A stretch of 64,000 nucleotides of DNA from Candidatus Woesebacteria bacterium GW2011_GWB1_39_10 (lineage in GTDB: Bacteria; Patescibacteriota; Microgenomatia; UBA8517), in the NCBI GenBank assembly GCA_000993205.1, contig LBVU01000002.1, positions 117,079 through 181,078 on the forward strand, written 5' to 3'. The notes below the pieces were generated by a model. It did not search any database. It saw only the letters and a program-made list of their open reading frames with translations, and was not told the origin of the DNA. The position numbers were made by a program, and so were the translations under genes. Position 1 is the first letter of the stretch. Every line of letters begins with the position of its first letter. Shown one piece after another: positions 3,194 through 63,556 of the stretch.

Positions 3194-4375
3194 TCAGCTT
3201 CCGATTTTGAACTCAACCACATCTCCGTCGTGCATTATATAGTCCCGGCCCTCGCTCCTGACTTTGCCTTCCTCACGACAAACCTTCCACCCGCCTACGC
3301 CCGGCTTCGGCGAGGCAGGCCCTCCAATAAAGTCACTAAAATCACAAACATCAGCTTTAATAAATTTTTTAATAAAATCCGTATGAATTACACCGGCGGC
3401 TTCTTGGGCACTGATCCCAACCGGAATGGTCCAAGCCCTAACTTCCTTCTCCCCTGCCGTTAAAAATGTAATTAGGCCGAGGGTTTTAAAAGCTTTCTGG
3501 ATTAACCTCTCCAATCCCGATTTTTTAATTCCAAGATCCTCCATGTATATTTTTTGGTCATCGTTAGAAAGTTCCGCAAGCTCGCTTTCGGTTTTGGCGC
3601 AAATTGCCACAACTTGATCGGGATTTAACTTGAGCTTTTCGGCAAAAGAAATTTCCAGATCATGCGCGTTTGCTAAATCTTTCTCATCCACATTCATAAC
3701 GACAAGGACGGGCTTGATTGTCAAAAGTCCTAGTTCTTTGGCTATTTTCCTCTCCTCCTCTGATACATCGTTATATAACGATGTATCACTGGATAAAATT
3801 GTTTTTAATCTCTGAACTGCTTGCCAGCGATCTTTTAATTCTTTATCCGGGGTATTGCCTGGGTCTTTTTGTTTTTCTAAAGTTTGAAGATCGGCCAGCG
3901 CAAGTTCAGTATTTAAGACCTCAAAGTCGCTTACGGGATCTTTTACTCCCTGTTTTACAATATCAGGGTCGGTAAATGCGCGAAGAACAAAACAAATCGC
4001 ATTGGTTTCCCTAATATGGCTTAAAAATTTGTTTCCTAATCCCTCACCTTTGCTAGCCCCGGCGATGAGACCAGCTATATCTACGAATTCGACAGTTGCT
4101 GGAACAATGGGGATACTCGATACTCGATACTCGATACTGGGTGGTTTTTTGTCCCCGCTTAGTATCTTAGTATCTCTATATCCTAGTATCTCCGACTCGA
4201 CAACTTTTCTAAGTTGTTCGAGGCGGCCGTCCGGAACCGGTACAATCCCTATGTTTGGTTCAATCGTTGCGAACGGAAAGTTCGCCACGTACGCCTGCTG
4301 CTTTTTAAGCAAAGCGTTAAAAAGTGTGGACTTCCCAACGTTTGATAACCCTACAATTGCCACACTAAGACTCAT
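3194..4375 (-). CDS. ychF: ribosome-binding ATPase YchF (Obg-family GTPase) carrying an about 30-aa in-frame insertion
   Basis: MSLSVAIVGLSNVGKSTLFNAL G1 motif, C-terminal TGS-like region; insertion ESEILGYRDTKILSGDKKPPSIEYRVSSIPI encoded by repeat 4112-4190. Confidence 0.88.
   Translation of the reverse strand: MSLSVAIVGLSNVGKSTLFNALLKKQQAYVANFPFATIEPNIGIVPVPDGRLEQLRKVVESEILGYRDTKILSGDKKPPSIEYRVSSIPIVPATVEFVDIAGLIAGASKGEGLGNKFLSHIRETNAICFVLRAFTDPDIVKQGVKDPVSDFEVLNTELALADLQTLEKQKDPGNTPDKELKDRWQAVQRLKTILSSDTSLYNDVSEEERKIAKELGLLTIKPVLVVMNVDEKDLANAHDLEISFAEKLKLNPDQVVAICAKTESELAELSNDDQKIYMEDLGIKKSGLERLIQKAFKTLGLITFLTAGEKEVRAWTIPVGISAQEAAGVIHTDFIKKFIKADVCDFSDFIGGPASPKPGVGGWKVCREEGKVRSEGRDYIMHDGDVVEFKIGS
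4112..4190. repeat. Palindromic oligonucleotide repeat (GATACTC)x4 ... (AGTATCT)x3 inside ychF coding sequence, in frame
   Basis: gatactcgatactcgatactcgatact at 4112-4138 and inverse agtatcttagtatc..tagtatc at 4161-4190; same heptamer family at 18470-18498 and 57339-57367. Confidence 0.8.
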
Positions 4376-12233: not shown

Positions 12234-13490
12234 CTATAAAGCTAGTAGTATTGAAGCAATTATCACCAATATCCCCACTCCGCCCGCAACAACTGTCGGC
12301 CAATCCGTACCCGTAACAGGAATTGGCCTGGGTGTTGAACTGGTTCCCGCTGAGGAGCCACTTGCAGTCCCTGTCGCGGTTGGTGTCGCAGTGGCAGTGG
12401 CGGTTGCTGTGGGAGTAGCCGTTGCTGTGGGAGTAGCTGTCGCGGTTGGTGTCGCAGTGGCAGTGGCGGTTGCTGTGGGAGTAGCCGTTGCTGTGGGAGT
12501 AGAAAGACATGTAATCGAAAAATTATCAAATTTTGCAGTAGTTGCTGGAAGTGGGTTGCCAGTTACCGGCATAGCAGCAAGACTGATAATCAAATCATCA
12601 GTTAGCGTGGTTGTAAAAACAATTAATTCTGTGAAAGTTGACGAGTTGGATAGTTTGTATGAAGTTGTAATTTTACCAGACTTTCTTTCGACCTTAAAGC
12701 TGACACTGTCAGTTCCATTAATTACCACAGATTTGTTTTGGTTGCCTGGAACAAAATTAACAGCCACATTATGCGCTTCTTGTTTAATATTTCTTCCAAC
12801 TGTAACTATTTTTGAACCATCTGGACTCACCAAAATAAGTGTTCCAGTAACCGCTCCTGTCCCCGTCTTAGTAAGAGCAGGCGCATCAAAAGTAATCACA
12901 AAATCTCCTGTTAAATATTTGGTACTGGTTATTTTAGATCCAGTTTGTTGCCCAGAAGTTACATCGAGAACCAACTGACCAGAAGACACTTTTGCATCCC
13001 CGACCTTACTCCATTTAGCAGAATCAATTGTGCTATCAAAACTATCAGAAAAGTTGTCTGAACAAGTCATACTTCCAGTTGGCCCCGGAGTTGGGGTCGC
13101 GGCAGCGCACTCAGTCATATCTTTGGTCCAAGCTCCGTTAAGTGACGGGCAGCAATATTGACTCCCTCCACATGATCCTATCCTACCGACTCGGTTACAA
13201 AGCTGTTCGTCCGGAGATCCATCGGCCTGGGCAGGGGTACAATTTCTTAAATGCGAAGGCGCCCCCGTGACAGGACACTGCTCGGCAGTAGGACAAGTTG
13301 TAGTCTGGGCCTTCTCTTGAATATTCTGTCTTTGACGCACAAGAAGTACTCCAGCAACAACACTAAGGATTAAAAAAACAACAATTAAAAAAGTCACTAT
13401 GATCCCCTTTTTTCCAAAACTCTTCTTCTTTGTTGAGGTTACTATTTCAAACGGAGAGGTTGTTTGCTTGTTAAGATTTTGGTCAGGCAT
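12234..13490 (-). CDS. cell-surface protein: N-terminal signal anchor, Cys-rich module, jelly-roll (LamG/ConA-like) segment, Pro-Thr-Ala repeat linker, C-terminal IPVTG plus hydrophobic anchor
   Basis: N-terminal TM IIVTFLIVVFLILSVVAGVLLV; (PTATAT)n repeats; C-terminus PIPVTGTDWPTVVAGGVGILVIIASILLAL resembles an LPXTG-type sorting signal. Confidence 0.6.
   Translation of the reverse strand: MPDQNLNKQTTSPFEIVTSTKKKSFGKKGIIVTFLIVVFLILSVVAGVLLVRQRQNIQEKAQTTTCPTAEQCPVTGAPSHLRNCTPAQADGSPDEQLCNRVGRIGSCGGSQYCCPSLNGAWTKDMTECAAATPTPGPTGSMTCSDNFSDSFDSTIDSAKWSKVGDAKVSSGQLVLDVTSGQQTGSKITSTKYLTGDFVITFDAPALTKTGTGAVTGTLILVSPDGSKIVTVGRNIKQEAHNVAVNFVPGNQNKSVVINGTDSVSFKVERKSGKITTSYKLSNSSTFTELIVFTTTLTDDLIISLAAMPVTGNPLPATTAKFDNFSITCLSTPTATATPTATATATATPTATATPTATATPTATATATATPTATGTASGSSAGTSSTPRPIPVTGTDWPTVVAGGVGILVIIASILLAL
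12340..12510. repeat. DNA-level tandem repeat (about 66-bp unit x2 plus partials) encoding the PT/AT-rich linker
   Basis: gttgctgtgggagtagccgttgctgtgggagtagctgtcgcggttggtgtcgcagtggcagtggcg repeated. Confidence 0.7.
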
Positions 13491-14933: not shown

Positions 14934-14965
14934 AATTGTAAATTGTAAATTGTAAATTGTAAATT
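14934..14965. repeat. Intergenic tandem octamer (AATTGTAA)x4
   Basis: aattgtaaattgtaaattgtaaattgtaaatt; reverse-complement copy caatttacaatttacaatttacaa at 39589-39612. Confidence 0.8.
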
Positions 14966-18276: not shown

Positions 18277-18882
18277 CTATAGTTCGCGGCGGCCTTCTAA
18301 GGCTTGGGTCAGAGTTGTCTCATCAGCATATTCTAAATCTGCTCCCGTTGGAATCCCCATCCCCAGGCGCGTAATTTTTAATTTTAAATTATTAATTTTT
18401 AATTGCTTGCCGAGGTACATGGCGGTAGCATTCCCTTCCATTGTGGGGTTTGTAGCAATAATTAGTTCAGATACTGGATACTCGATACTAGATACTCGCT
18501 TCAGTAAATCGTCAATATATAGTTCATCCGGGCCTATATTTTCCAATGGATTAATCGCCCCATGAAGAACATGATAAACACCTTTAAAATGAGTTCTTTC
18601 GAACGCAAGAATATCTAGGGGTTGCTCTACTACCATCACTAACGATTTGTCCCGCATCGGGTCTGTGCAAATCGGACAAGGGTCGTCCTCACTAATATTT
18701 TTGCAAATTGAACAAAGTTTTGTGTTTTTCTTCAAATTTAGGATTGAATCGGCAAACTCATCGAGTTGGACTTGAGGAACATGCAAAAGATAATAAGTAA
18801 GGCGCTGAGCGCTTTTTGGCCCGATACCAGGAAGCTTGCTAAAAGATTCAATTAGAGCGGTAATGGGACGAGCTATTTTCAT
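18277..18882 (-). CDS. recR: recombination protein RecR
   Basis: C4 zinc finger CSICKNISEDDPCPIC and Toprim LIIATNPTMEGNATAMYL; dnaX-ybaB-recR context. Confidence 0.92.
   Translation of the reverse strand: MKIARPITALIESFSKLPGIGPKSAQRLTYYLLHVPQVQLDEFADSILNLKKNTKLCSICKNISEDDPCPICTDPMRDKSLVMVVEQPLDILAFERTHFKGVYHVLHGAINPLENIGPDELYIDDLLKRVSSIEYPVSELIIATNPTMEGNATAMYLGKQLKINNLKLKITRLGMGIPTGADLEYADETTLTQALEGRREL
18470..18498. repeat. GATACT(G/C/A) heptamer tandem x4 in frame inside recR
   Basis: gatactggatactcgatactagatactcg; encodes ...SSIEYPVSE... Confidence 0.75.
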
Positions 18883-19619: not shown

Positions 19620-21062
19620 TTAATTCCCAAATATCTCTTCTGCAACCTTGATTATATCCTTATCCTTTCCTTCAGTCAAAATTGGTTCAATTTTTGTCTC
19701 TTCAATTATTTTTTTAGCCGGAGGCTCAACCAATGTACAAACGACTCTCGTGGGCGACTGTAAAACTCTGGCAACTATATTCTCTAAAACCTGTCTGTGC
19801 TGTGTATCTTCCAAGCGTTCTTTATGAAATTTGTAATAAACTCCCAAGGTCAGAGTTTTACCATCATAAGCCACTGGGCGAGCAGCCCGAAGTAACGCTT
19901 CGATTGAGGCATTTATTGGTTTTATTGAAGACAAAATAGTATTCCAAATCTCTCCTTCAACCTCCATATTTTCGACAGCCGCCTCAACTGTTTCTACAAC
20001 TTCCTCGACAGAAGTCTTGTCTCCCATGTCCCCACTCTTAGTTATCAGTTCTTCGTTCTTAGTTTCACCTCCACACCATTTTATTACGGCGATCTCGAGT
20101 GGTAATTCTTCGATAGGCGAGTCGGGTACTTGTCGGTTGGCCTCAATCAGGAGTTCTGCCAAAACTATCAGTTCGCGATTTTCTGAAATATCCAAGATAA
20201 TATTTTTGTGTATTTCAATTAGAGCCTGCTTAAGTATTCCTTCGGCACCCGCACCTGCCTCAACTGCGTTCTTAATGTAATTAAGGGCATTATGCAGATT
20301 TTTCTTGTATAGAAAACCGACAAACTCATCTACCCCCTGCGCTTTGCCTTTTTCCAAAAAATTATTACCTTCAACACTAACCTGCTCTAAAAGCTTTACC
20401 GCGTCCCTAAACGATCCGTTGGCGGCGCCGGCGATATCTTCCAAAGTTTTTGGATCAAAATCGAGTTTTTCCCCTTTAATCACACGTGTTAAAGATTGCC
20501 GGATTTCTTCAGAGCTTGCTTTCCTGAACCTGATAAATGTTGTCCTCGACCGGATTGTATCAATAAGTTTTTCCGGATTTGTTGTTGCTAAAATAAAAAC
20601 TACGTGTTCCGGGGGTTCCTCAATGGTTTTGAGAAGTGCATTACTGGCCTCAGTTGTTAACATGTGAGCCTCATCAATAATATATACTTTTTTATTCGCT
20701 TTTACCGGGGAGAGTTTGACGACGTCTCTTAGTGTTCTTACATCATCAATTCCACGGTGAGAAGCGGCATCCATTTCAATTACATCCAAATTATTACCTT
20801 TTGTTACGGAAACACATTGTTCACACTTATCACAAGGTTCATAGCTTTTCACTTTTAGCTTTTCACTTTTAGCTATCTCCTCACAGTTTATTATCTTTGC
20901 CATTATTCTCGCCGCGGAAGTTTTGCCTGTCCCTTTTGGCCCGGCGAATAAGAAAGCATGAGGAATTTTGCCCGAACTTACGATCTTTTTTAATGACTCA
21001 CGAACCTCAGGCAAGTCAAGTTCATCTAAATTATTTGAACGGTATTTTAGATAGAGAGTCAT
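19620..21062 (-). CDS. dnaX: DNA polymerase III subunit gamma/tau
   Basis: AAA+ Walker A GPKGTGKTSAARI, zinc module CEEIA..CDKCEQC; contains in-frame KSEKLKVKS insertion. Confidence 0.92.
   Translation of the reverse strand: MTLYLKYRSNNLDELDLPEVRESLKKIVSSGKIPHAFLFAGPKGTGKTSAARIMAKIINCEEIAKSEKLKVKSYEPCDKCEQCVSVTKGNNLDVIEMDAASHRGIDDVRTLRDVVKLSPVKANKKVYIIDEAHMLTTEASNALLKTIEEPPEHVVFILATTNPEKLIDTIRSRTTFIRFRKASSEEIRQSLTRVIKGEKLDFDPKTLEDIAGAANGSFRDAVKLLEQVSVEGNNFLEKGKAQGVDEFVGFLYKKNLHNALNYIKNAVEAGAGAEGILKQALIEIHKNIILDISENRELIVLAELLIEANRQVPDSPIEELPLEIAVIKWCGGETKNEELITKSGDMGDKTSVEEVVETVEAAVENMEVEGEIWNTILSSIKPINASIEALLRAARPVAYDGKTLTLGVYYKFHKERLEDTQHRQVLENIVARVLQSPTRVVCTLVEPPAKKIIEETKIEPILTEGKDKDIIKVAEEIFGN
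20843..20873. repeat. Tandem repeat (CTTTTCACTTTTAG)x2 inside dnaX, reverse complement of the AAAGTGAAAAG family
   Basis: agcttttcacttttagcttttcacttttagc; encodes AKSEKLKVKS in dnaX. Confidence 0.75.
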
Positions 21063-27537: not shown

Positions 27538-27629
27538 CTTGGTAATTAATAACTGAGAATTAATATCTAATAACTCGAATTAAAAACTTAAAGCAATCTC
27601 GGTTTTTAGATTTAAGATATGGTTATTAG

Positions 27630-28337
27630 TTATTGGTTATTAGTTTTTAATTTGGACTTACCCTCTAAAATTGCCTCCTTCACCAAACCAAGTACATATT
27701 CCAGCGCTTTGCTTGCATCATCATTCATAGGAATTGGGTAATCAATTGCATCCGGATCGGAGTTGCTATCGACTATACCAACGACGGTCACATGCCCCGC
27801 GTTTGCTTCCCTTACCGCCGATGCTTCTCTTTTTGTGTCAATAACAAAGAGCACGTCCGGAACTTTTTCCAGAGTTTCGACTCCCCCAAAAAATCTTTCA
27901 AGTCTGGTTATTTCGCGGTCAATTAAAAGCCTCTCTTTTTTTGTAAATTTAGCGTAACCACCCGAGGCCATATTTTCCCTCATCTCTTCCATTTTTTTAA
28001 GTGACTTTTTGATTTGACCAAAATTCGAAACTGTTCCACCCAACCATCTTTCGTTAACATATGGCACCCCGATTTCTTCCGCAACTTCCTTTACCTTTTC
28101 CTTGATTTGTTTTTTTGTTCCCAAAAGAAGTATTGTTTTGCCTTCTTTGGCAGATTTTGTTAGAAATTCCAAAGCTTCTTCGATAAGGGGTTTGGTTTTG
28201 GTTAAATCGAAAATATGAACTCCGTTTTCCGAGCCATAGATATACTCCTCCATTTTGGGGTTCCAACGTTTGGTTTGATGCCCAAAATGGGCACCTGCAT
28301 CCAATAAATCTTCGAGTGAAACTTTAAGTTTATTCAT
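27630..28337 (-). CDS. rpsB: 30S ribosomal protein S2 (start at MNKLKV; the track ORF is extended upstream through a repeat element)
   Basis: LLDAGAHFGHQTKRWNPKM conserved S2 N-terminus. Confidence 0.92.
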   Translation of the reverse strand: MNKLKVSLEDLLDAGAHFGHQTKRWNPKMEEYIYGSENGVHIFDLTKTKPLIEEALEFLTKSAKEGKTILLLGTKKQIKEKVKEVAEEIGVPYVNERWLGGTVSNFGQIKKSLKKMEEMRENMASGGYAKFTKKERLLIDREITRLERFFGGVETLEKVPDVLFVIDTKREASAVREANAGHVTVVGIVDSNSDPDAIDYPIPMNDDASKALEYVLGLVKEAILEGKSKLKTNNQ

Positions 28338-32185: not shown

Positions 32186-32213
32186 TGTTCTACTGTTCTA
32201 GAACAATAGAACA
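32186..32213. promoter_or_regulatory. 28-bp near-perfect palindrome TGTTCTACTGTTCTAGAACAATAGAACA (CTAG core), putative operator of the TrpR-like regulator
   Basis: Identical 28-mer at 63008-63035 and related 20-mer at 63537-63556 flanking the TrpR/YerC-like gene. Confidence 0.55.
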
Positions 32214-37251: not shown

Positions 37252-38328
37252 TTAAAGACCTTTTGTTATCCTTATCTTCTTCAAAAGCCCGTTGTCTTCA
37301 AGGCACGCGCCACAACCCCGTACTACGCAAGTTAATGGGTCTTCAGCTATCCAAACAGGCATTTTAGTTGCCTCAGAAATTACTTTATCAATTCCCCCAA
37401 TGAGTGAACCACCACCTGCAAGTGTTATTCCTTTTTCCATAATATCGCTGGTAAGTTCCGGCGGAGTCTCCTCCAGAGTGTCGACTATATTCGCAACAAT
37501 TTCCTGGATAATGGTTGAAAGAGCTTCCTGAATTTCACCGCTCGTTAATTTGATTGATTTTGGCAACCCTGTTTCCAAATCCCTCCCCCGAACAACTGTA
37601 AATTTACCAGCAGGTTGATCCTTTGAAGTAAAGCCTGCAATTTCTATTTTTACTTTTTCGGCTGTGGGTTGTCCCAAAAGAAGTGAGTATTTAAGTCTGA
37701 CATAATTTATTATAGCCTCATCCATTTCATCTCCGGCAACACGGACACTTCTCCCGAGAACTATTCCGCCCAATGAAATTATCGCAATTTCGCTTGTTCC
37801 TCCTCCTATATCAACTATAAAATTGCCCTCGGGGCCTTCTATTGGCAACTTTGCTCCAATTGCCGCAGCTATCGGCTCTTCGATTAAATACGCTTCACGG
37901 GCGCCGGCATCGAGTGCCGCGTCCGCCACGGCACGCCTTTCCACATCCGTTACGCCCGAAGGAATTCCGATAACAACTCTTGGACGCGGAATTTTTGGCA
38001 TTATGGTTCCTGATTCGTGAACTTTCTGAATGTAGTGCTTAAGCATCGCCGCCGTTGCATCAAAATCGGCAATTACCCCGTCCCGAAGCGGCCTGATTGT
38101 TTCAATTGTTGCGGGCGCTCTTCCATACATCCTTTTTGCGCTTGTTCCGATTGCCAAAATTTCTTTGGTTTTTTTGTGACGCGCAACAGCCGAAGGTTCT
38201 CGTATTACAATACCTTTACCGCGGACGTAAACTAGAGTATTGGCCGTCCCCAAATCGATACCAATGTCATGCGAGAAAAGTCCCAAAAAGCAGTCTATCG
38301 GATTTACAAATCTAACAAAATTTCGCAT
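37252..38328 (-). CDS. mreB: rod shape-determining protein MreB (start taken at MRNFVRF)
   Basis: DIGIDLGTANTLVYV actin-fold phosphate-1 motif. Confidence 0.9.
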   Translation of the reverse strand: MRNFVRFVNPIDCFLGLFSHDIGIDLGTANTLVYVRGKGIVIREPSAVARHKKTKEILAIGTSAKRMYGRAPATIETIRPLRDGVIADFDATAAMLKHYIQKVHESGTIMPKIPRPRVVIGIPSGVTDVERRAVADAALDAGAREAYLIEEPIAAAIGAKLPIEGPEGNFIVDIGGGTSEIAIISLGGIVLGRSVRVAGDEMDEAIINYVRLKYSLLLGQPTAEKVKIEIAGFTSKDQPAGKFTVVRGRDLETGLPKSIKLTSGEIQEALSTIIQEIVANIVDTLEETPPELTSDIMEKGITLAGGGSLIGGIDKVISEATKMPVWIAEDPLTCVVRGCGACLEDNGLLKKIRITKGL

Positions 38329-38406
38329 CGCAACGCAGTATAACCAGTCATGCAAAATAATCAAATATCCAAATCTCAAATTACAAATAAATGATAAAAT
38401 GCATAA

Positions 38407-40524
38407 ATGATTAAATTACAAAAAATTATTTTCATTCTTTTTGCAATTCTTTTTTTCTTCGTTCCTTTAGTTTTGTGGCCGTATACATCTGAAGTTTTTG
38501 AATTTAACAAAATAGTCTTGGTATACATATTTACGGTTTTGATAGTTGCCGCATGGTTTGCAAGGACTGTCCTTGCACAAAAGATAATATTTCGTCGCAC
38601 AATATTAGATATACCACTTTTGGCATTTTTAGCTTCGCAATTTAGCTCAACCATTCTTTCGATAGACCCATCAACTTCTTGGTTGGGATATTATTCCAGG
38701 TTTAACGGCGGACTGCTTTCTACTATTTCCTATTCCCTACTTTATTGGGCCTTCGTTTCCAACTTAGACCGAAAACACGCCCTATATACTATATATTATA
38801 TACTTGCCTCCGCCTCGCTTGCTTCTGTTTACGGCGTATTAGAGCACTTCGGCATCGATAAAGCCCTCTGGGTTCAGGATGTTGCTTCCCGTGTATTTTC
38901 TACTCTTGGACAGCCGAATTGGCTGGCGGCGTTCCTCGTCGCGCTCCTGCCTATTACATGGGCTTTGGCGCTCACAAGATTCCAGATTCCACAACGAAGT
39001 TGGTTACGTAATTCCAGATTCTTGATACATTTCTTGCTTTCGATCCTATTTTTTTGGACATTAATATTTACCAAATCAAGATCGGGGCTTTTAGGATTTG
39101 GTGTAGCATTTCCGATTTTTTGGATGGGATATTTTTGGCTAAACCGAAAAAGTTTCTTGAAATGTCTTTCCCCTTTTGCCATTATTAGTTCTTCACTATT
39201 AATTATTAGTTTAATTTCCGGTACTCAATATACTCCCAACCTATATAACTTCTTAATTAAAACCAATAAAGGCTTGCCGGCCGAAACCCTGGTGAAGGCT
39301 GGGCCGGCTCTTGAAGTCGGTGGAACCGAGTCCGGTACTATCCGGAAAATCGTATGGCGCGGGGCTATCGAAATATGGAAACAGTACCCGATTTTTGGAA
39401 CAGGCGTCGAAACTTTTGCTTTTTCTTACTACCAATTTAGGCCCGTCGAACACAATTTAGTCTCCGAATGGGATTTTATTTACAACAAAGCACACAATGA
39501 GTACCTTAATCTCGCAGCCAATACAGGTAGTTTTGGATTAATTGCCTATTTAGTTCTTGTTAGTTTCTCGATATATCAAATGATTAAGAATTTACAATTT
39601 ACAATTTACAATTTACAAACAAATTCTAAGTTTGAAAATTTCAAAAATGAAAATTTATTGAAAATTGGTAATTGGAAATTGGTAATTCTCGGCCTCTTGG
39701 CCGGTTATACAAGTCTTCTCGTAACCAATTTTTTTGGTTTTTCGGTCGTTCCAACCCAACTCCAGTTATTTTTATTTCCGGCGATAGCGATTATTTTAGC
39801 TAAAAGTGAAGAGGTAAAAGTGAAAAGTGAAACGATAAATACCAATCAAAAAGTTCTAATTCTTATAACGCTCTTAGTTCTTAGTTATTCGCTTTTCGTT
39901 ATCGGCAAATATTGGTATTCCGATACTCTTTATGCCAAAGGTAAGGGATATAACAGCATTCAACGACCGGATGCCGCCATCAACTATTTAGTCCGGGCTA
40001 CTAATATGAAACCCAACCAACCACTATTTCACAGTGAGTTGGCAAACTCATACGCGGCCATGGCGCTTGCTCTTTATAACCAGAAAGACATAAATGGATC
40101 TAAAAAGTATGTCGATTTGGCAATTAGCGAATCAGACAAATCTGTTACCCTTTCTGCCTCTATGCTGAATTTAAAAAGATCGCGTTTTGGAGTATTCGTA
40201 GTGCTTTCAACTATAAATCCGAACCATCTTCTTATTGCCCAAGAAACTTTAATTGATGCTATAACATTTGCTCCAACCGATGCAAAACTTTATTACAATT
40301 TAGGTCTGACCTACGCAAGAACCGGCCAACCGGACCGCGCAATTGAAATTCTAATTAAAACAATCGGTTTAAAAGCCAATTACAGAGACGCAAGGCTTGC
40401 ATATGCATATCTCTTAATTGACAAGAACAAGAACACTGAGGCAAAAGAACAACTCGGATATATTCTTAAATCTATCGACCCCAACGATTCACTTGCCAAA
40501 CAGGCGCTTGAGAGCATCAAATAA
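38407..40524 (+). CDS. O-antigen ligase (Wzy_C) family membrane protein with C-terminal TPR repeats
   Basis: RKIVWRGAIEIWKQYPIFGTGVETF matches the R..W....P.GxGxG.F ligase motif; about 10 TM helices; TPR-like C-terminus; contains three in-frame oligo repeats. Confidence 0.75.
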   Translation: MIKLQKIIFILFAILFFFVPLVLWPYTSEVFEFNKIVLVYIFTVLIVAAWFARTVLAQKIIFRRTILDIPLLAFLASQFSSTILSIDPSTSWLGYYSRFNGGLLSTISYSLLYWAFVSNLDRKHALYTIYYILASASLASVYGVLEHFGIDKALWVQDVASRVFSTLGQPNWLAAFLVALLPITWALALTRFQIPQRSWLRNSRFLIHFLLSILFFWTLIFTKSRSGLLGFGVAFPIFWMGYFWLNRKSFLKCLSPFAIISSSLLIISLISGTQYTPNLYNFLIKTNKGLPAETLVKAGPALEVGGTESGTIRKIVWRGAIEIWKQYPIFGTGVETFAFSYYQFRPVEHNLVSEWDFIYNKAHNEYLNLAANTGSFGLIAYLVLVSFSIYQMIKNLQFTIYNLQTNSKFENFKNENLLKIGNWKLVILGLLAGYTSLLVTNFFGFSVVPTQLQLFLFPAIAIILAKSEEVKVKSETINTNQKVLILITLLVLSYSLFVIGKYWYSDTLYAKGKGYNSIQRPDAAINYLVRATNMKPNQPLFHSELANSYAAMALALYNQKDINGSKKYVDLAISESDKSVTLSASMLNLKRSRFGVFVVLSTINPNHLLIAQETLIDAITFAPTDAKLYYNLGLTYARTGQPDRAIEILIKTIGLKANYRDARLAYAYLLIDKNKNTEAKEQLGYILKSIDPNDSLAKQALESIK
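39589..39687. repeat. In-frame tandem repeats (CAATTTACAA)x3 and (GAAATTGGTAATTG)x2 inside the O-antigen ligase-like gene
   Basis: aatttacaatttacaatttacaaa 39589-39612 and gaaaattggtaattggaaattggtaattc 39654-39687. Confidence 0.75.
39798..39832. repeat. AAAGTGAAAAG-family tandem repeat in frame (encodes EEVKVKSET)
   Basis: agctaaaagtgaagaggtaaaagtgaaaagtgaaa. Confidence 0.75.
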
Positions 40525-40567: not shown

Positions 40568-41101
40568 ATGATCAGAAAGATAATTCAATCGGGTAACCCG
40601 ATTTTAAGACGAAAATCCAAAAACATTGCCAAGGTGGACAAAAAGGTTCAGGAGATAATCAGGGATCTGAAGGATACATTAAAGACCCAAAAAGAACCGG
40701 AAGGTGTGGGCCTGGCAGCTCCCCAAATCGGCAAGAATCTGAATATCTTCATTGCTAGCTACAAAAATTTTCAACGAGTGGTAATAAACCCTGAAATTTT
40801 GAAAATTTCAGGAGCTAAAAGTGAAAAGCTAAAAGTGAAAAGTAAGAAGGAAATACTCGAAGGCTGCTTGTCACTTCCTTATTACTACGGACCTCTAAAA
40901 CGAGCGGATAAAATCACCGTTAAATATCTAAACGAAAAAGGAGAAGAAATTACGGAAGATTTAGAAGGTTTTGATGCTCAAATAATTCTTCACGAAATTG
41001 ATCACCTTGAGGGAAAATTGTTCATCGACAGACTTTTTGAAGAAAAGAAACCCTTGTATAAAGTTGATGGAGATGAATGGGAAGAGGTGGAGCTTTCGTA
41101 G
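40568..41101 (+). CDS. def: peptide deformylase
   Basis: EGCLSLP and HEIDHLEG metal-binding motifs; def-fmt pair; carries in-frame KSEKLKVKSKK insertion. Confidence 0.92.
   Translation: MIRKIIQSGNPILRRKSKNIAKVDKKVQEIIRDLKDTLKTQKEPEGVGLAAPQIGKNLNIFIASYKNFQRVVINPEILKISGAKSEKLKVKSKKEILEGCLSLPYYYGPLKRADKITVKYLNEKGEEITEDLEGFDAQIILHEIDHLEGKLFIDRLFEEKKPLYKVDGDEWEEVELS
40813..40842. repeat. AAAGTGAAAAG-family tandem repeat in frame inside def
   Basis: agctaaaagtgaaaagctaaaagtgaaaag. Confidence 0.8.
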
Positions 41102-47949: not shown

Positions 47950-48705
47950 TTAGGCTTTTGTCATCCCCAACTTTTTGGGCCAGGAGTCGCCCTTCGGAGT
48001 AATTACAAACATCATTCTTTTGTCAGTCACGGTACGGGGTTTGGAAGTTCCCCCAACTTTAATCTCGTTTGAATCCCACCAGCGCCTTTGAAAATCCTTG
48101 ATTCTAAATCTTCTATCCACCCCTGCGAACTTATGGAACGGGTCTGCAATCCGAATATAGCCCCGTTCTTTATCTACCCGAGTAATAACGCCGTAATGCC
48201 CATCGTCTTCGTCGGCGTCTTCATAAAATACCCCTTGCCACTCCACACCCACAGGAAACCTGTATTTATTTACAATTGCGTCCAAATCGCTGATTTTAGA
48301 ATTTGCCTTTTTCCAGAAAGAAAAACCCCCTTTGCCGGCTATTTTGGCGCCGCGCGCCAAATCTTTTATGCTCATTCCCCATTTCCTGATTTTCTTCTGC
48401 GCGCGGAGTGAGACTACAATCCTCTTCTGAAAAGTTTTAACACCCAAGAAAGAAAACAACATAGTGATCACCGCCGGCCCACAGCTATAAATATCAACCT
48501 GACGTAATCTTGACATGCCGGGAAACGCAACCCCGCGGATTCTGTCTTCTAAGGCTAAAAGACGTCTAATGACCTCCCGAATTGTCTTATTTGTATTGAT
48601 TTCCATTTGGCCCAATTGTACGGCCATTAAACAAATTTGTCTACTGAAGATTCTTGGCGTATTTGGAAAGAAGACTCCCCAAAGTTTCCGAAAATTCCAC
48701 GCCAT
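47950..48705 (-). CDS. papain-like cysteine peptidase/acyltransferase, peptidase C39-like fold
   Basis: RQVDIYSCGPAVITML (Q...CGxA) plus downstream DDGHYGVITRVD (His) resemble the C39 / BtrH-like catalytic arrangement. Confidence 0.55.
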   Translation of the reverse strand: MAWNFRKLWGVFFPNTPRIFSRQICLMAVQLGQMEINTNKTIREVIRRLLALEDRIRGVAFPGMSRLRQVDIYSCGPAVITMLFSFLGVKTFQKRIVVSLRAQKKIRKWGMSIKDLARGAKIAGKGGFSFWKKANSKISDLDAIVNKYRFPVGVEWQGVFYEDADEDDGHYGVITRVDKERGYIRIADPFHKFAGVDRRFRIKDFQRRWWDSNEIKVGGTSKPRTVTDKRMMFVITPKGDSWPKKLGMTKA

Positions 48706-49717
48706 TCATAGCCATTACTTCCGTCATTGGAAGACCCATATCTGGTCCGAATGCTGTATTGGGGTTACTATCAGTAAAATATGGAATGTGAGTGTTCTCG
48801 TCTACTCTAATATCAAACTTTGCATAATCTTTGTGTTGAAGACCTCCAAAGGCCCGTACAGCAAGTTTTTTAATTTCATACTTAAGACTTTCTTCTACAG
48901 GAACGTATTTATACGCTCTGGCATCTGAATACGATTCAAAACTTGTAAAAAAATGTTTGCCGTCAGGTCTTTTCCTGAATATTTTTTGCGCCATATAAAC
49001 GTGACGTTTGATATTGTCTTCAAAAACCACCACTGTTATTTCCGGACCGTCAATAAACTTTTCTACAATGACAGGAACTTTATATAGTGTAATCATGTTG
49101 TTAACCCTGAGTTTGGCGGCTCTGTCTGTTTCCTTTACTGCCGTGTCATTTATACCAACACTGCCACCACCCTCGTTCAATTTAACTATCAGAGGCAAAC
49201 CCAAATCTTCATCTATGTTTGTTCCGACACGCCTTATAAATTGAAACGGAGGTGTTGGAACATCGTAGGCCATGAGAAGTCTTTTTGTTAGATTGCGGTT
49301 GTTGCCAATAATAAGGCCTTCCATTCCCGCCCCGGTATATGGAATATTGGCAAGCTCAAGAGCCGCTGGGACCGACGGCTGAAGCTGATCCCGACCTTTT
49401 AAGGTGTCAACAAGATTAATGACCAAGTCCGGTCTATCTACCAACAAATTCGTATAAAAATATTGATCTCCGGGAAGGGTGCGTGTGGGAATTCCAAGCT
49501 TACGTACCTCCTCCGATACCTCTATCGCCCTCGCCTCCACTTCAATTTCCGCTTCGTAAGCGTCTTTTGTGGCAAAATTTTCCCGTTCAACAGAAGAATA
49601 TGCAACCACAACCAGCCGAAATTTTTTGAGAGCTTCTTTGTCTATAGACAAACGGATATTTTCCCTGGACGGAGATTTTTTTATTTCAACTTCTTCCTCA
49701 ACTTTGGCAGTGGGCAT
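48641..49717 (-). CDS. ATP-grasp enzyme of the D-alanine--D-alanine ligase family with atypical N-terminal region (start taken near MPTAKVEE)
   Basis: LIVKLNEGGGSVGI, IDGPEITVVVFED and C-terminal KFDIRVDENTHIPYFTDSNPNTAFGPDMGLPM parallel Ddl motifs. Confidence 0.7.
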   Translation of the reverse strand: MPTAKVEEEVEIKKSPSRENIRLSIDKEALKKFRLVVVAYSSVERENFATKDAYEAEIEVEARAIEVSEEVRKLGIPTRTLPGDQYFYTNLLVDRPDLVINLVDTLKGRDQLQPSVPAALELANIPYTGAGMEGLIIGNNRNLTKRLLMAYDVPTPPFQFIRRVGTNIDEDLGLPLIVKLNEGGGSVGINDTAVKETDRAAKLRVNNMITLYKVPVIVEKFIDGPEITVVVFEDNIKRHVYMAQKIFRKRPDGKHFFTSFESYSDARAYKYVPVEESLKYEIKKLAVRAFGGLQHKDYAKFDIRVDENTHIPYFTDSNPNTAFGPDMGLPMTEVMAMNGVEFSETLGSLLSKYAKNLQ

Positions 49718-49753
49718 ATACATATAGTAAAAGGTAAAAAGTAAAAGGTAAAG

Positions 49754-50194
49754 ATGTATAATTTTAGTATGAAGAAAAAGGTCTTGGTCGGCGGGTGTTT
49801 TGATATCCTCCACTATGGACATATTCATTTCCTTAAAAACGCCAGGGCGCTTGGCGATTACCTGGTAATTGCGCTGGAATCAGATAAAAATATAAAAAGG
49901 ATAAAGGGATCTTTCCGCCCTATTCATGATCAGGATAAAAGGCGCGAAATTCTTGAATCTTTAAATTTTGTAGATGAAGTAATAATTTTAAAAGACGAAA
50001 TGCAGGATAGCGACTATTTTGAGTTGGTTGACAGGGTGCGACCCTGTACAATCGCCGTAACTTCGGGAGATTCCATGATTGAAAAGAAAAAAGCTCATGC
50101 GGCAAAGGTCGGGGCCAAAGTCATTGAAATCCCCAAAATTGAGTCTGCCTCAACTTCCAAGATTACCAAACTGCTGGAACTGGAAACGTCATAG
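49754..50194 (+). CDS. cytidylyltransferase-like (HIGH-motif nucleotidyltransferase) small protein
   Basis: VLVGGCFDILHYGHIHFLKNA is the (H/T)xGH nucleotidyltransferase signature. Confidence 0.75.
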   Translation: MYNFSMKKKVLVGGCFDILHYGHIHFLKNARALGDYLVIALESDKNIKRIKGSFRPIHDQDKRREILESLNFVDEVIILKDEMQDSDYFELVDRVRPCTIAVTSGDSMIEKKKAHAAKVGAKVIEIPKIESASTSKITKLLELETS

Positions 50195-53905: not shown

Positions 53906-55726
53906 TTGATGGATTTTAAAACCAGATTTGATTCTCTGCCGGTACCCACCAAAAGGCTCCTTGGAATAGGTGTTGTTTTGGCCCTCGCAGTTGCTCTTCC
54001 CCTTTTTGTTTGGTCCATTATTACTCAAAGATTTCTAATCAATAAACGCGCCGCGTCCGGAGAGCCGGGTGTTTGTATCGCGCAAAATAAAATCATTATA
54101 GTTACCCCATCCTCAAACTCCAACGGAACCTGTCATGATATCCAAATGGCGATTAATGCGGTAACGGGAGAAGGATACACTGTTCAAATTGAGCCGGGAA
54201 TTTATAACATTGCTTCTACTATTAATGTAAGTGGAAAAACAACTATAAACATCACGGGTAATCCGCAGGCAGGTTCCGGCGCAACCGTCATAAACTCAAC
54301 TCCGGGTGGCGGTTGGGGTATTTTAGTAGAAAACTCGTCGGGAACGATTCAGTACCTGACAATGCAAGGAGGAAGTTCAAACGGAATGCTGAGTATTAAA
54401 AATAGCAACAATTTTTCGGTGGGATATGCAAACCTTAATTCTCAGACCTCTCATACCATGGACATTCAGGGTTCAAACACAATTAGTGTTTTTAATACAG
54501 AAATAACAAGCTCGGCCGGCGCGCTCGAAATCGGTGGATCAGCAAATATAAATATTTCGAATAATAAAATTCACAATTCCAATAATGCCATTGCAATCAA
54601 CAATTCATCCGGTGTTAGACTACTCGGTAATCTTATATACGGGAATCGTGAATCAGGCCTTGTTATTAACACCTATACGAATAATGTTAGGGATTTTAAG
54701 GCCATGCATAATACTTTCGTAAACAACGCTTTGGGCGGCAACACTATTCCAACCATATCTTTATTGGGAACATCCGGCCGCAATCTTGAATTCAGCAATA
54801 ATATAGTTTTGGGAGGCTTGGGGGCAGGGATTGGCTCCAAAAATCGTTTGCTTTTTAACACTTTTACTCTCAACGATATTTTTGGAAATACTCCAAATTA
54901 CGAGAGATATCCAAATCAAACCGGCAGGAGCGGGAACATTTCAAAAGACCCGCTTTTGAATAGCAACAACTTTATTTACTGCCCCTCACCCGCATCTCCC
55001 GTAGTTTATGGAAATATCGCAAACGGCAAATACATGGGCTATATCGGGCCCTGCGGAACATCAACCCCGCCACCGACTCCGACTCCATCTCCTACCCCAA
55101 CCGGATATCCGAGTCCGACACCGACTACGACGCCGACTGCTGTGCCGTCAGGAACGCCGGGAACAACTCCTCCCCCAACCGTAAGGCCTTTTCAAATTCT
55201 ATTTAAGTTTGATGGTGTAACAGACGGCTCGGCGGCAACCTCGGGTGCCACCGTCCGGTTTAGAGGAGGTCCAAATGGTTCCATTGACTTGATAACACCC
55301 ACAATTCCAACGACTTATATTGGCAGCGGAATCTATCAACTATATTTTGCAACGAATTTGCCTGACGATACCAACTACTCGGTTTCATTAAAAGGAGAAA
55401 AACACCTTGCAATTAGATTTTGCTACCCAAGCGAACAAACTACTTATTGTTCAGATAGTCAAGGACACATTGGTGTTTACAACGCTTCCGGTCCTGAGAA
55501 TTTGGACTTTACAGGAATTCCTCTTCCTGCAGGCGACACATACCCGCAAGACGGAGTTGTCAATTCTACCGACTACGACAGAGTAAGAAGTTTATTTAGC
55601 AAACCGGATTCCGAATTAACAACTACTGACAAACTTGTAGGCGATCTTAATTACGATGGGTTCATCGATATCCGAGACTCATTCCTGATTAGGAAAACAT
55701 TAGGAACCAGATACGATGAAAGCTAA
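53906..55726 (+). CDS. secreted right-handed parallel beta-helix protein with Pro/Thr linker and C-terminal dockerin-like module
   Basis: N-terminal signal/TM; repeated N-x-G/I-x-N beta-helix rungs; PPPTPTPSPTPTGYPSPTPTTTPT linker; two Ca-binding-loop-like repeats DGVVNSTDYDRVRSLF and DLNYDGFIDIRDSFLIRKTLG. Confidence 0.65.
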   Translation: MMDFKTRFDSLPVPTKRLLGIGVVLALAVALPLFVWSIITQRFLINKRAASGEPGVCIAQNKIIIVTPSSNSNGTCHDIQMAINAVTGEGYTVQIEPGIYNIASTINVSGKTTINITGNPQAGSGATVINSTPGGGWGILVENSSGTIQYLTMQGGSSNGMLSIKNSNNFSVGYANLNSQTSHTMDIQGSNTISVFNTEITSSAGALEIGGSANINISNNKIHNSNNAIAINNSSGVRLLGNLIYGNRESGLVINTYTNNVRDFKAMHNTFVNNALGGNTIPTISLLGTSGRNLEFSNNIVLGGLGAGIGSKNRLLFNTFTLNDIFGNTPNYERYPNQTGRSGNISKDPLLNSNNFIYCPSPASPVVYGNIANGKYMGYIGPCGTSTPPPTPTPSPTPTGYPSPTPTTTPTAVPSGTPGTTPPPTVRPFQILFKFDGVTDGSAATSGATVRFRGGPNGSIDLITPTIPTTYIGSGIYQLYFATNLPDDTNYSVSLKGEKHLAIRFCYPSEQTTYCSDSQGHIGVYNASGPENLDFTGIPLPAGDTYPQDGVVNSTDYDRVRSLFSKPDSELTTTDKLVGDLNYDGFIDIRDSFLIRKTLGTRYDES

Positions 55727-56795: not shown

Positions 56796-56990
56796 ATGTT
56801 CATACTAAAAAAGAATAAAGGCGAAAGCGACGACAAATTAATTGCCCGCTTTCGCAAAAAAACTATTGTAGAAGGTGTAATGCAGGAATATCGCGATCGC
56901 GAACACTATAAAAAACCTTCTGAAAAAAGAAAAGAGGCCAAATACAGAATTGCCCACTCTATTGAACTGGAAAAGAAACGCCACTTCTAA
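56796..56990 (+). CDS. rpsU: 30S ribosomal protein S21
   Basis: EGVMQEYRDREHYKKPSEKRKEAKYRIAHS matches S21 core. Confidence 0.75.
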   Translation: MFILKKNKGESDDKLIARFRKKTIVEGVMQEYRDREHYKKPSEKRKEAKYRIAHSIELEKKRHF

Positions 56991-57021
56991 AATAACTAAG
57001 AGCTAAAAAGTAAGAACTAAT

Positions 57022-57051
57022 AGCTTTTCACTTTTCGCTCTTCACTTTTAG
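57022..57051. repeat. AAAGTGAAAAG-family repeat (reverse complement) encoding the C-terminal KLKVKSEK of RNase HII and forming an imperfect hairpin with 57000-57021
   Basis: agcttttcacttttcgctcttcacttttag opposite agctaaaaagtaagaac. Confidence 0.65.
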
Positions 57052-57720
57052 TTTGTTGAGCCAAGTGGCGACGAAGGCTTTCCTGTGCAATTTAGTCGCT
57101 CCATATTTTTTGATGGCATTTTGGTGTTCTTTTGTCCCATACCCTTTGTTTTTACCCCATTTGTAAACTCTAAATTTTGGATTTTTGGAGATTTTTACCA
57201 TTAGTTTATCCCGATAGACTTTGGCGACAATTGAGGCTGCTGCGATTGAAATCGATTTCGTATCCCCTTTAATAATGGCCTTTTGGTTTTTTCTTCTTAG
57301 ACTCCTTACGTAAGGTATGAAGAAGGCGTCAATGAGTAGATACTCGATACTGGATACTTTGATACTCACACTTTTGATCGCTTTACGGAAAGCTATTTCT
57401 GAGGCTTTTTTTATCCCAAACCGATTTATTTGTGCCACACTTGCCTGTCCGATTCCAATCGCAAGTGCATTTTGCCGTATCCATTTATCTGCAACTTTCC
57501 TCTGTCTTGGAGTAAGTTGTTTTGAGTCGTTGATAATTATTTTGCGATTACCTTTCAAGACCGTGTCTTTAAAGGTGGTTATAGTATTTCTGTCAAAGAC
57601 AACACATCCTGCCACAATTGCGCCGGCAAAACAGCCTCTACCTACCTCATCCATACCGGCAACAACCTTAAAACCTTTATTCCACAGCTTCTTTTCAAAG
57701 GAGAAATCCGGAAGTGTCAT
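57028..57720 (-). CDS. rnhB: ribonuclease HII
   Basis: VAGMDEVGRGCFAGAIVAGCVVF catalytic N-terminus; contains in-frame SSIEYLLID insertion and KVKSEK tail. Confidence 0.88.
   Translation of the reverse strand: MTLPDFSFEKKLWNKGFKVVAGMDEVGRGCFAGAIVAGCVVFDRNTITTFKDTVLKGNRKIIINDSKQLTPRQRKVADKWIRQNALAIGIGQASVAQINRFGIKKASEIAFRKAIKSVSIKVSSIEYLLIDAFFIPYVRSLRRKNQKAIIKGDTKSISIAAASIVAKVYRDKLMVKISKNPKFRVYKWGKNKGYGTKEHQNAIKKYGATKLHRKAFVATWLNKLKVKSEK
57339..57367. repeat. GATACT(C/G/T) heptamer tandem x4 in frame inside rnhB
   Basis: gatactcgatactggatactttgatactc. Confidence 0.75.
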
Positions 57721-62962: not shown

Positions 62963-63007
62963 TGCCCGAAAAAATACATTACTTCTCAATTATCCTTATC
63001 TGTTAAG

Positions 63008-63035
63008 TGTTCTACTGTTCTAGAACAATAGAACA
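63008..63035. promoter_or_regulatory. 28-bp palindrome TGTTCTACTGTTCTAGAACAATAGAACA directly abutting the stop codon of the TrpR-like gene
   Basis: Identical to 32186-32213. Confidence 0.55.
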
Positions 63036-63536
63036 CTATTTGCGATATAATTCACTATTCATTTCAGCTATTTCTTTATCTATTACCTCTTTTTCCGACA
63101 TTTTCTCAATTAGCTCTTTGGGAGTTTTATCTTGTTTCTCTGCTACAGCATATTGCCCAGTGGCTAACAGTAATTCCGGTAAATGAAATTCAATCGGACC
63201 ATGTGGAATTTTGGTTGGTTTGCCCCATTTTAATGGCAACTTCGCGATCGCCTTCTTAAATCCATTTCCACCTTTTTCCAACCAAATGTTAACTTTATTC
63301 ACAGTTCCCAAACTTGAATGAGTTTCCCGAACGACTTCACGCTGATGTTTGCCAGAGAGCAATAGTTTGGCTATACGAAGCCTTATTGAAAGAATTTTTA
63401 TTTCGTTGGCGGTAAGCAGATCCTCAAGGAAATCCGCTATTTCAGAAGCATTTCTTAAGTCCTTAAATGAGTTTACCAAATCAAACATCAAACTTACCTT
63501 TTCCTCGTTTCCTAATTTTTCCGCTTTCTGTTTCAT
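63036..63536 (-). CDS. TrpR/YerC-YecD-family DNA-binding protein with C-terminal extension
   Basis: FLEDLLTANEIKILSIRLRIAKLLLSGKHQREVVRETHSSLGTVNKVNIWLEKGG matches the Trp-repressor-like family pattern. Confidence 0.7.
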   Translation of the reverse strand: MKQKAEKLGNEEKVSLMFDLVNSFKDLRNASEIADFLEDLLTANEIKILSIRLRIAKLLLSGKHQREVVRETHSSLGTVNKVNIWLEKGGNGFKKAIAKLPLKWGKPTKIPHGPIEFHLPELLLATGQYAVAEKQDKTPKELIEKMSEKEVIDKEIAEMNSELYRK

Positions 63537-63556
63537 TGTTCTAGAACATTAGAACA
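63537..63556. promoter_or_regulatory. Palindrome TGTTCTAGAACA plus TTAGAACA directly abutting the start codon of the TrpR-like gene, putative auto-operator
   Basis: Shares the 12-bp CTAG-core palindrome with 32186-32213 and 63008-63035. Confidence 0.55.

Follow-up and report, generated by a model that had tools for sequence, protein, structure and literature searches.

We analysed a 64,000-nucleotide stretch of the genome of Candidatus Woesebacteria bacterium GW2011_GWB1_39_10 (contig LBVU01000002.1; the whole stretch is called the window below), in which one short tandem repeat lies inside the genes def, dnaX and rnhB and an O-antigen-ligase-like gene. We consider this motif, AAAAGTG alternating with AAAAGCT, to be probably one unit type among the genome- and clade-wide heptamer arrays of the kind described as short tandemly repeated repetitive (STRR) sequences or heptamer long simple-sequence repeats (LSSR), which would be shaped by slippage and copying together with selection. 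The lysine-rich peptides encoded by the motif are most likely by-products of this DNA-level repeat process. The compound unit is a 14-mer, AGCTAAAAGTGAAA, which consists of the heptamers AGCTAAA and AGTGAAA, and about two tandem copies of it were found at four loci. These loci and a related array are as follows:

40813-40842, plus strand: def array, AGCTAAAAGTGAAAAGCTAAAAGTGAAAAG, the 14-mer repeated 2.1 times; peptide SGAKSEKLKVKSKK, in which the array part is AKSEKLKVKS; located in a hairpin loop with VINPEI on one side and EGCLS on the other
20842-20874, minus strand: dnaX array, the 30 nt of def plus CTA, the 14-mer repeated 2.4 times; peptide IAKSEKLKVKSY, (I)AKSEKLKVKS(Y)
39798-39832, plus strand: array in the Wzy_C/TPR (O-antigen-ligase-like) gene, AGCTAAAAGTGAAGAGGTAAAAGTGAAAAGTGAAA; peptide AKSEEVKVKSET, AKSEEVKVKSE
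57021-57053, minus strand: array at the 3' end of rnhB, AACTAAAAGTGAAGAGCGAAAAGTGAAAAGCTA; peptide KLKVKSEK; the TGA stop codon (57028-57030) lies within the repeat
49726-49752, plus strand: related array of GTAAAAG/GTAAAAA, in the 30-nt spacer between divergent Ddl-like and cytidylyltransferase-like genes

The sequence-only reading had described the same DNA repeat on the sense strand of four genes, translated into Lys/Ser/Glu-rich peptides; our translations bore this out, and its coordinates and peptides were correct at all four loci on re-reading. Pfam identified the products as Pep_deformylase (def), DnaX (DNA_pol3_delta2 and DnaX_C), RNase_HII (rnhB) and Wzy_C with TPR (the ligase gene). 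Proteins identical to the def and rnhB products occur in Microgenomates/Woesebacteria metagenome-assembled genomes (MAGs) from the GW2011 groundwater study. The related array near 49.7 kb had been placed at the start of the ATP-grasp gene; it is actually intergenic, between the divergent start codons of the ATP-grasp (Ddl-like) gene (48641-49723, minus strand) and the cytidylyltransferase-like gene (49754-50194, plus strand), as seen in the gene calls of identical contigs. In the window, the 11-mer AAAGTGAAAAG has six exact matches against 0.07 expected, and none of 100 shuffles reached six; a 16-mer allowing up to two mismatches gave eight matches against 0.12 expected. Moreover, the def and dnaX arrays are identical over exactly 30 nt.

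The motif was found to be part of a much larger set of arrays. Using Tandem Repeats Finder (TRF) and 30 dinucleotide-preserving shuffles of the window, we identified 29 rows of period 7 against a shuffle mean of 1.3 (maximum 4), an about 20-fold excess, and eight rows of period 14 against 0.47, while other periods were raised merely 2- to 4-fold. The period-7 arrays represent about 28 loci, of which 19 are inside open reading frames (ORFs) and in frame, six overlap gene edges and three are intergenic, the array at 49726 being counted among the last. Overall, they are located in variable loops, at gene termini and in spacers. Their units are varied and include GATACTC, AATTGTA, TAGTTAT, AAGCACG, GCCATAA, TCTTAGT, ATTTCGG and AGATTCC, and some recur at unlinked loci (AAAAGTG/AAAAGCT at four, GAGTATC at three and AATTGTA at two). 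Two arrays illustrate this recurrence:

57339-57367, minus strand: a further heptamer array of rnhB with GAGTATC as its sense unit, encoding VSSIEY; also present in several relatives at 67-74% identity
39589-39618, plus strand: (AATTTAC) repeated 4.3 times in the ligase gene, peptide NLQFTIYNLQ; the unit is also found in the intergenic array at 14934-14965

The GAGTATC unit is additionally located at 4112-4138 and 18469-18498, and it encodes VSSIEY in three genes. Every Woesebacteria relative that was fetched is similarly rich in period-7 arrays, with 176 rows within 582 kb of Woesebacteria loci. We considered whether a few preferred heptamers dominate the clade and rejected this, as the perfect runs are spread over many units. 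Thus, the motif, which had been taken for a discrete oligo-repeat family of insertions, represents a single unit type out of those at about 28 period-7 array loci.

The frame, length and peptide that the copies have in common are no evidence for a selected peptide, as they follow from the stop codons which the unit contains. An endless run of the 14-mer contains TGA and TAA, and the longest open stretch in the sense direction is 11 codons, KAKSEKLKVKS, in a single frame. The def, dnaX and ligase copies match this sole open frame, and the rnhB copy is read one register on and ends at the stop. Two other units, TAGTTAT and ACTAAGA, have stops in both orientations; all TAGTTAT arrays are intergenic or at gene edges, and the ACTAAGA arrays in ORFs are only short (15 nt) or imperfect. 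The shared peptide is therefore a consequence of filtering. Protein-level selection for a Lys-rich K-x-K-x-K peptide, for example one that contacts nucleic acid or membrane, with convergent codon usage, is in our judgement extremely unlikely: although every relative has a Lys-rich def loop and the peptides are hydrophilic and lie in loops, the copies are identical even at synonymous positions, the DNA of one array is read in two frames with the third giving the rnhB stop, noncoding copies exist, unrelated units encode unrelated peptides, and the loop sequences vary freely among relatives.

The history of the def locus argues for replacement of units at a fixed site. Homologues at 70-97% identity all carry a Lys-rich loop of the same length from VINPEI to KKEILEGCLS, and in the DNA of more than 60 metagenomic relatives (retrieved loci carry L numbers below) the length of the loop is constant and its content varied. 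It consists of (GCTAAAAGTGAAAA)2 in the window and L026, of GTTAAAA-GTGAAAA-GTTAAAA-GTTAAAA in L047 and L048, of a GTCAAAA variant in L050, of (GGTAAAA)n in L054, of (AAATCAC)4 in L117, of (CAATCAC)4 in L128 and of a mixed A/C/T/A-AATCAC array in the L119 group; other lineages have a Lys-rich loop without periodicity. The earlier proposal that the def segment is a repeat insertion was thus largely refuted: the loop is ancestral and occurs in relatives at 63-97% identity that lack the AAAAGTG/AAAAGCT repeat, many of which have other heptamer arrays at this very site. Since the loop length is constant and ancestral, the def array is not an insertion but the present occupant of a permissive loop. 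Within the array, GCT changed to GTT in both units 1 and 3, and such a simultaneous change of several units is a signature of concerted evolution within the array. The idea that the inserted peptides fall in loops held at the level of sequence alignment to solved structures, by which the loops in peptide deformylase (PDF) and gamma were placed: the additional residues stand opposite gaps in the sequences of PDF (1LME) and gamma (1NJF). The def loop is nine residues longer than that of the Thermotoga maritima PDF (1LME), with the gap just before EGCLS. An AlphaFold2 model of PDF (24-sequence alignment) was left unused, as its mean predicted local distance difference test score (pLDDT) was 62 and residues 84-111, including EGCLS, scored below 50.

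Two other features were observed at the def loop. Directly 5' of the array, a perfect palindrome with 11-nt arms, CCTGAAATTTT-G-AAAATTTCAGG, occupies positions 40790-40812 of the window. In a number of relatives (L049:5780-5830, L067, L068, L110, L101, L075, L079 and L070) the def loop contains a GC-rich hairpin-like element, e.g. CCCCACTCCGCCAAGGCTTCGCGGGGC, which encodes peptides of the PHSAKATRGK/SAKASRGK type and makes the loop 3-8 aa longer. Its appearance is that of a second type of small dispersed element lying in frame; it was not found in the window.

At the dnaX locus, the array sits between Cys1 and Cys2 of the zinc module, where it had been described as an insert, and the loop indeed exceeds that of most relatives and of E. 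coli gamma (1NJF) in length; the latter shows an eight-residue gap opposite the array. Most Woesebacteria have a Cys1-Cys2 spacing of 5-8 residues (NCESKNPPC or NCEKLGKNGKPC), and a spacing of 15 residues was found in the window and in the proteins P0121 (CP066686), P0122 and P0166. The long loop exceeds the commoner NCEKLGKNGKPC form by exactly 7 aa, which is 21 nt or three heptamers, and all four long loops retain an NNNAAAA period in their DNA. Between CP066686 and the window there are three synonymous differences in the array, two of which are the same C-to-T change 14 nt apart, so that CT has become TT in two successive 14-mers. The synonymous divergence from CP066686 is ordinary, with 8 of 11 array codons identical compared with 59% in the rest of the gene (p = 0.28), and no inverted repeat was found at the array. 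The dnaX array is an old expansion that has been inherited vertically.

The ligase array occupies a hydrophilic loop that has hydrophobic segments on either side. The AAAAGTG array is present in the window only, and L026, L047 and L049 carry unrelated loop sequence of nearly equal length; compared with these three, the array is not added sequence but replaces an equal length of a variable loop. Similarly, L026 has loops that agree in position and length with the (AATTTAC)4 and (ATTGGAA)4 loops of the window but carry (ATAAAAA)n and (TTTTACA)n, and the AGATTCC array (RFQIP) is found in different ligase loops in the window and L047. One unit was found in both orientations: the T-rich one, TCTTAGT (LLVLSY), lies in a hydrophobic ligase segment and the A-rich one in a hydrophilic linker of DnaX.

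The peptide at rnhB had been described as the C-terminal tail of RNase HII, which we confirmed. The RNase HII core ends in ...FVxTWL, followed by SKA in the shortest homologues, and the tails beyond this point are variable among relatives (NKLKVKSEK, SKLEARSTKSETNPK in P0242, NNSSSSQAR and others). The third reading frame of the array provides the TGA stop. Downstream, a further copy was identified:

56998-57019, minus strand: imperfect inverted copy of the array, within the 37 nt that separate rnhB from the convergent gene rpsU (56796-56990, plus strand; the S21 gene)

The array and its inverted copy form 22-nt arms that are 73% complementary, but the hairpin is weak (-18.8 kcal/mol, z -1.3, no better than shuffles), and a scan of the rnhB end for a consensus terminator gave nothing. 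The case for a terminator at this site of the window is therefore weak; stronger hairpins occur in relatives. At the rnhB end of CP066686, another array (AAATCCG) overlaps the stop codon and is followed by an inverted copy downstream, with a folding energy of -33.4 kcal/mol and z -4.8.

Inverted pairs of heptamer arrays were also observed elsewhere. Pairs at gene 3' ends with units unlike those of the window are found at L131:10785-10910 (CP066686 rnhB), L131:175-305 and L043:11468-11552, and the pairs in relatives form strong hairpins. In the window, an intergenic 49-nt pair of AATAACT-type and GTTATTA-type arrays at 27544-27652 has z -2.7 against shuffles. Inverted pairs beat shuffles significantly, with z of -4.8, -3.6, -2.7 and -2.5. 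The pairs at gene 3' ends may act as terminators or as structures that stabilise mRNA.

Unit sharing between loci suggests that copies have been exchanged within the genome. The compound unit AAAAGTGAAAAGCT is present at three separate loci of the window, and it is in none of about 39 occurrences of AAAAGNNAAAAGNN at other Woesebacteria loci, except in the close relative L026. In addition, the ligase and rnhB copies have the same A-to-G variant (GAAGAG), although their frames differ. Because AAAAGTGAAAAGCT is missing from the other Woesebacteria loci apart from L026 and GAAGAG is shared, independent slippage at each locus is unlikely, and we infer copying between loci or short-patch conversion.

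The repeat was also identified far outside the clade. Among species-representative genomes, 36 stretches, including L026, contain an exact copy of the 26-mer AAAAGTGAAAAGCTAAAAGTGAAAAG. The remaining 35 are mostly from Bacteroidota, with some from Anammoxibacter, Acidobacteria, Thalassotalea, Desulfobacteraceae and Sedimentisphaerales. In these genomes the 26-mer is usually located within longer (AAAAGNN)n arrays, other heptamer arrays are found at the same loci, and about two thirds of the sites in other phyla have no long ORF spanning them. In L002, L006, L018, L028 (a Dysgonomonas MAG) and L020, the 26-mer lies inside a larger dispersed element, which has a GTCATTGCGA...GCAATCC hairpin upstream and TGAATTGAAAATC downstream and is present at several loci of one Bacteroidia genome.

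These findings raise the question of whether AGCTAAAAGTGAAAAGCTAAAAGTGAAAAGCTA, about 30 nt long, moves as a unit in the manner of a very small mobile or copy-paste element and leaves those in-frame insertions that survive. We regard this as unlikely. It would account for the exact 30-nt identity of def and dnaX, the variant common to the ligase gene and rnhB, the genome-specific TG/CT compound unit at three loci, the discrete gain of 21 nt in dnaX, the lineage-specific ligase copy and the 26-mer in 35 unrelated genomes, at times at several loci per genome. However, the four copies lack the defined ends of miniature mobile elements (miniature inverted-repeat transposable elements, REP/REPIN, small dispersed repeats and Rickettsia palindromic elements), as they have no common flanks, no terminal inverted repeats and no target duplications. 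Comparison of filled and empty sites showed 21 additional nt in dnaX relative to most relatives, but def and ligase loops of the same length with or without the array, so that these two arrays substitute for loop sequence of equal length. Arrays of other units occupy orthologous sites, dozens of other heptamer units behave alike, and the common length and phase are imposed by stops. The 26-mer had no match in viral contigs, and hence there is no sign of phage carriage. Two further candidates were rejected. The arrays do not have the character of a phase-variable contingency locus, as they lie in def, dnaX and rnhB, have 2-4 copies only and are identical between assemblies, nor that of a DNA uptake sequence, since there are many units, always in tandem, and not one single-copy 9-12-mer.

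We propose that heptamer arrays form and become homogenised when the nascent strand misaligns in a 7-nt register. Such misalignment would include replication slippage and transient template switching, the latter overwriting a neighbouring unit with no change in length. Where separate loci of a genome carry identical arrays, short-patch copying or gene conversion among A-rich arrays would be the most likely cause. Only copies that keep the frame, lack stops and suit the local protein environment would then survive selection, with Lys/Ser/Glu loops where the sense strand is A-rich and hydrophobic membrane segments where it is T-rich. Co-option of some noncoding copies may have followed, for example of inverted pairs as 3' hairpins and of arrays as 5' spacers. 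A more radical version, which we think very improbable, is that arrays are written or refreshed by a templated, length-neutral process that overwrites permissive A-rich stretches with the current "house" unit, for instance short-patch conversion from single-stranded DNA or RNA or the action of a dedicated enzyme. If true, it would explain the identical 30-mers in unrelated genes, the lineage-specific overwriting at equal length, the synonymous conservation in some arrays and the recurrence of the compound unit in distant phyla.

The repeat is not an artefact of assembly, because the arrays are unchanged across independent assemblies of the same population. Six contigs retrieved from these assemblies were compared with the window, and three of them match it at 100% identity over 11-20 kb; the other three are L040 (three mismatches and two gaps), L037 (scaffold gaps) and L042 (one divergent block). 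No array differs in any of the six. In L042, the identity with the window is interrupted only by an approximately 450-nt block in mreB (37297-37744), with 115 mismatches and 14 gap openings affecting about a quarter of the positions. Long identical tracts inside otherwise diverged genes were also observed in L130, which is identical to the window across its 3' half, and in L049 (5830-5900). Such mosaic contigs suggest frequent homologous recombination or chimeric assembly. The relative L026 (CAZBTH010000010.1) comes from a MAG with the label "uncultured Gammaproteobacteria". As it is syntenic with the window at about 80% identity, the contig is probably mis-binned or mislabelled.

Several results weigh against slippage, copying and selection as the full explanation. 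A slip of 7 nt shifts the frame of an essential gene, so the arrays in ORFs are limited to 21-nt steps or to length-neutral conversion, and neither was observed directly. Copy-number polymorphism of arrays was absent among five independent assemblies of the population. Sharing of units within genomes was only about 2-fold above the comparison value when TRF consensus units were used (2.4% versus 0.94%), which is weak; the exact 14-mer census is more informative on this point than the TRF consensus comparison. The presence of the 26-mer in 35 loci of unrelated phyla is unexplained by slippage alone. Finally, some arrays are conserved more strongly than drifting repeats would be expected to be. 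Between L047 and L048, 13 of 13 codons of the def array are identical compared with 44% elsewhere in the gene (p = 1e-4), synonymous conservation of the def array is also found between the window and L026 (p = 0.008), and the intergenic array at 49726 is 100% identical in CP066686 (L131:19550-19578), whose genome is only about 80% identical.

This conservation bears on a possible function of the arrays as nucleic acid. We compared the arrays of the window with their 150-nt flanks in CP066686, L026, L047, L049 and L046 (70-82% identity). Most arrays were conserved below their flanks or could not be aligned in relatives, so that turnover is the rule between genomes of about 80% identity. Those conserved above the flanks were def, dnaX, the cysS tail at 13670 and the 5' spacers at 38355, 49726 and 51791, and the spacer arrays, which lie 5' of genes, were the best conserved (49726 100%, 38355 94% and 51791 89%). 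The longest run identical between the window and L026 is 116 nt, with the def array at its centre, and the palindrome CCTGAAATTTT-G-AAAATTTCAGG falls within this block. The conservation of the def array may reflect selection on the nucleotide sequence or recent exchange.

Selection at the DNA or RNA level could thus act on arrays as binding sites or structures, with sites for a single-strand binder of the OB-fold/cold-shock type, leader or ribosome-binding-site spacers and arms of terminator-like hairpins as candidates. The unusually conserved synonymous sites of the def array, the 116-nt run centred on it and the conserved spacers of divergent genes speak in its favour, as do the inverted pairs that fold beyond shuffles, the presence of an array with an inverted copy at the rnhB 3' end in both the window and CP066686 with different units, and the recurrence across phyla. 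Nevertheless, we find a function of this kind improbable. Most arrays in ORFs are unconserved among relatives, the dnaX array has drifted at the ordinary synonymous rate, and the coexistence of many unrelated units argues against one specific binder. Moreover, the rnhB hairpin of the window is weak and the terminator scan was empty, and common mosaic recombination tracts can by themselves yield locally identical blocks. Taken together, these results leave heptamer arrays formed by slippage and copying and sorted by selection as the explanation that we favour.

Other repeats were observed along the window and in relatives. At 12364-12502 there is a perfect 66-nt in-frame duplication with sub-periods of 18 and 24 nt in the gene at 12234-13490, and at 55073-55138 a degenerate in-frame run of 11 CCGACT hexamers; neither is heptameric. 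A long palindromic motif built on TGTTCTAGAACA, e.g. AGTGTTCTACTGTTCTAGAACAATAGAACACT, with an operator-like look, is found at 32186-32213, 63006-63037 and 63529-63556, and two of these three copies flank the ORF at 63036-63536. In the Woesebacteria relative L049, an (AACAGTC)n array occupies positions 4244-4274, and its unit is the same as that of the cyanobacterial STRR3 repeat CAACAGT. Another locus, L016, carries a GGGGATT array that resembles the Nostoc repeat described in PMC4692102.

The arrays have practical consequences. Candidate Phyla Radiation (CPR) genomes pack them into conserved, alignable housekeeping genes, and orthologous loops of these genes can be compared across hundreds of metagenomic relatives. 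They hence show at single-nucleotide resolution how arrays are born, have their units replaced, change in concert and are lost, and the mechanism is therefore testable by comparative genomics. Lys-rich or VSSIEY-type insertions in CPR proteins would best be read as repeat-derived filler and not as functional motifs.

We compared the arrays with known repeats of similar kind. STRR heptanucleotide arrays have been known since 1990. The STRR of heterocystous cyanobacteria and the heptamer LSSR resemble the arrays described here in their tandem 7-nt units with few copies per array, in the dispersal of several unit families in one genome and in the over-representation of period 7. The window accordingly shows a head-to-tail period of 7 nt, an excess of this period, a dispersed unit and variation at the same sites among relatives. 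The difference lies in location, since STRR and LSSR are described as mainly intergenic, whereas about two thirds of the arrays here (19 of 28) are in frame within ORFs, including those of the essential genes def and dnaX. They differ further in setting and composition, as the CPR genome is about 1 Mb in size and about 92% coding, and the units are AT-rich and not G-rich. The very small dispersed repeats that Elhai and colleagues are said to have described from Nostoc in 2008, and the Rickettsia palindromic elements, reportedly also lie within ORFs, keep the frame and occupy tolerant regions. These are, however, said to be discrete insertions with hairpin potential and defined ends, in contrast to the arrays found here, which are tandem, lack such ends and often take the place of sequence of the same length.

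According to the accounts of Mrazek 2007 in PMC4679880 and PMC4692102, heptamers are the commonest class of long simple-sequence repeat in many bacteria, with polymerase slippage as the proposed origin. Heptamer repeats have been described for cyanobacteria, Beggiatoaceae, Bacteroidetes and Xanthomonas, and polymerase slippage is the sole mechanism put forward in this literature (PMC4679880, PMC4692102); we found no published description of heptamer arrays in CPR bacteria. The TAACTGA repeats of marine Beggiatoaceae, Cyanobacteria and Bacteroidetes (MacGregor 2015, PMC4679880) are likewise short heptamer arrays at many loci, spread over unrelated phyla without an evident transfer mechanism; the stops in their unit limit overlap with genes, and some arrays lie immediately 5' of start codons. 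They are dominated by one unit that is mostly upstream of starts, whereas the arrays here consist of many units and are mostly coding. The GGGAATC/GGGGA(T/C)T arrays of Xanthomonas and Nostoc (Rehm 2015, PMC4692102) sometimes form inverted pairs capable of stem-loops, and their length and sequence vary widely among close relatives at the same intergenic sites, as observed here; they are G-rich and intergenic with quadruplex potential, whereas the present arrays are A-rich and have no such potential. In comparison with all these cases, the Woesebacteria arrays are unusual in being mostly coding and in frame within essential genes, in their very small host genome and in the replacement of units without a change in length.

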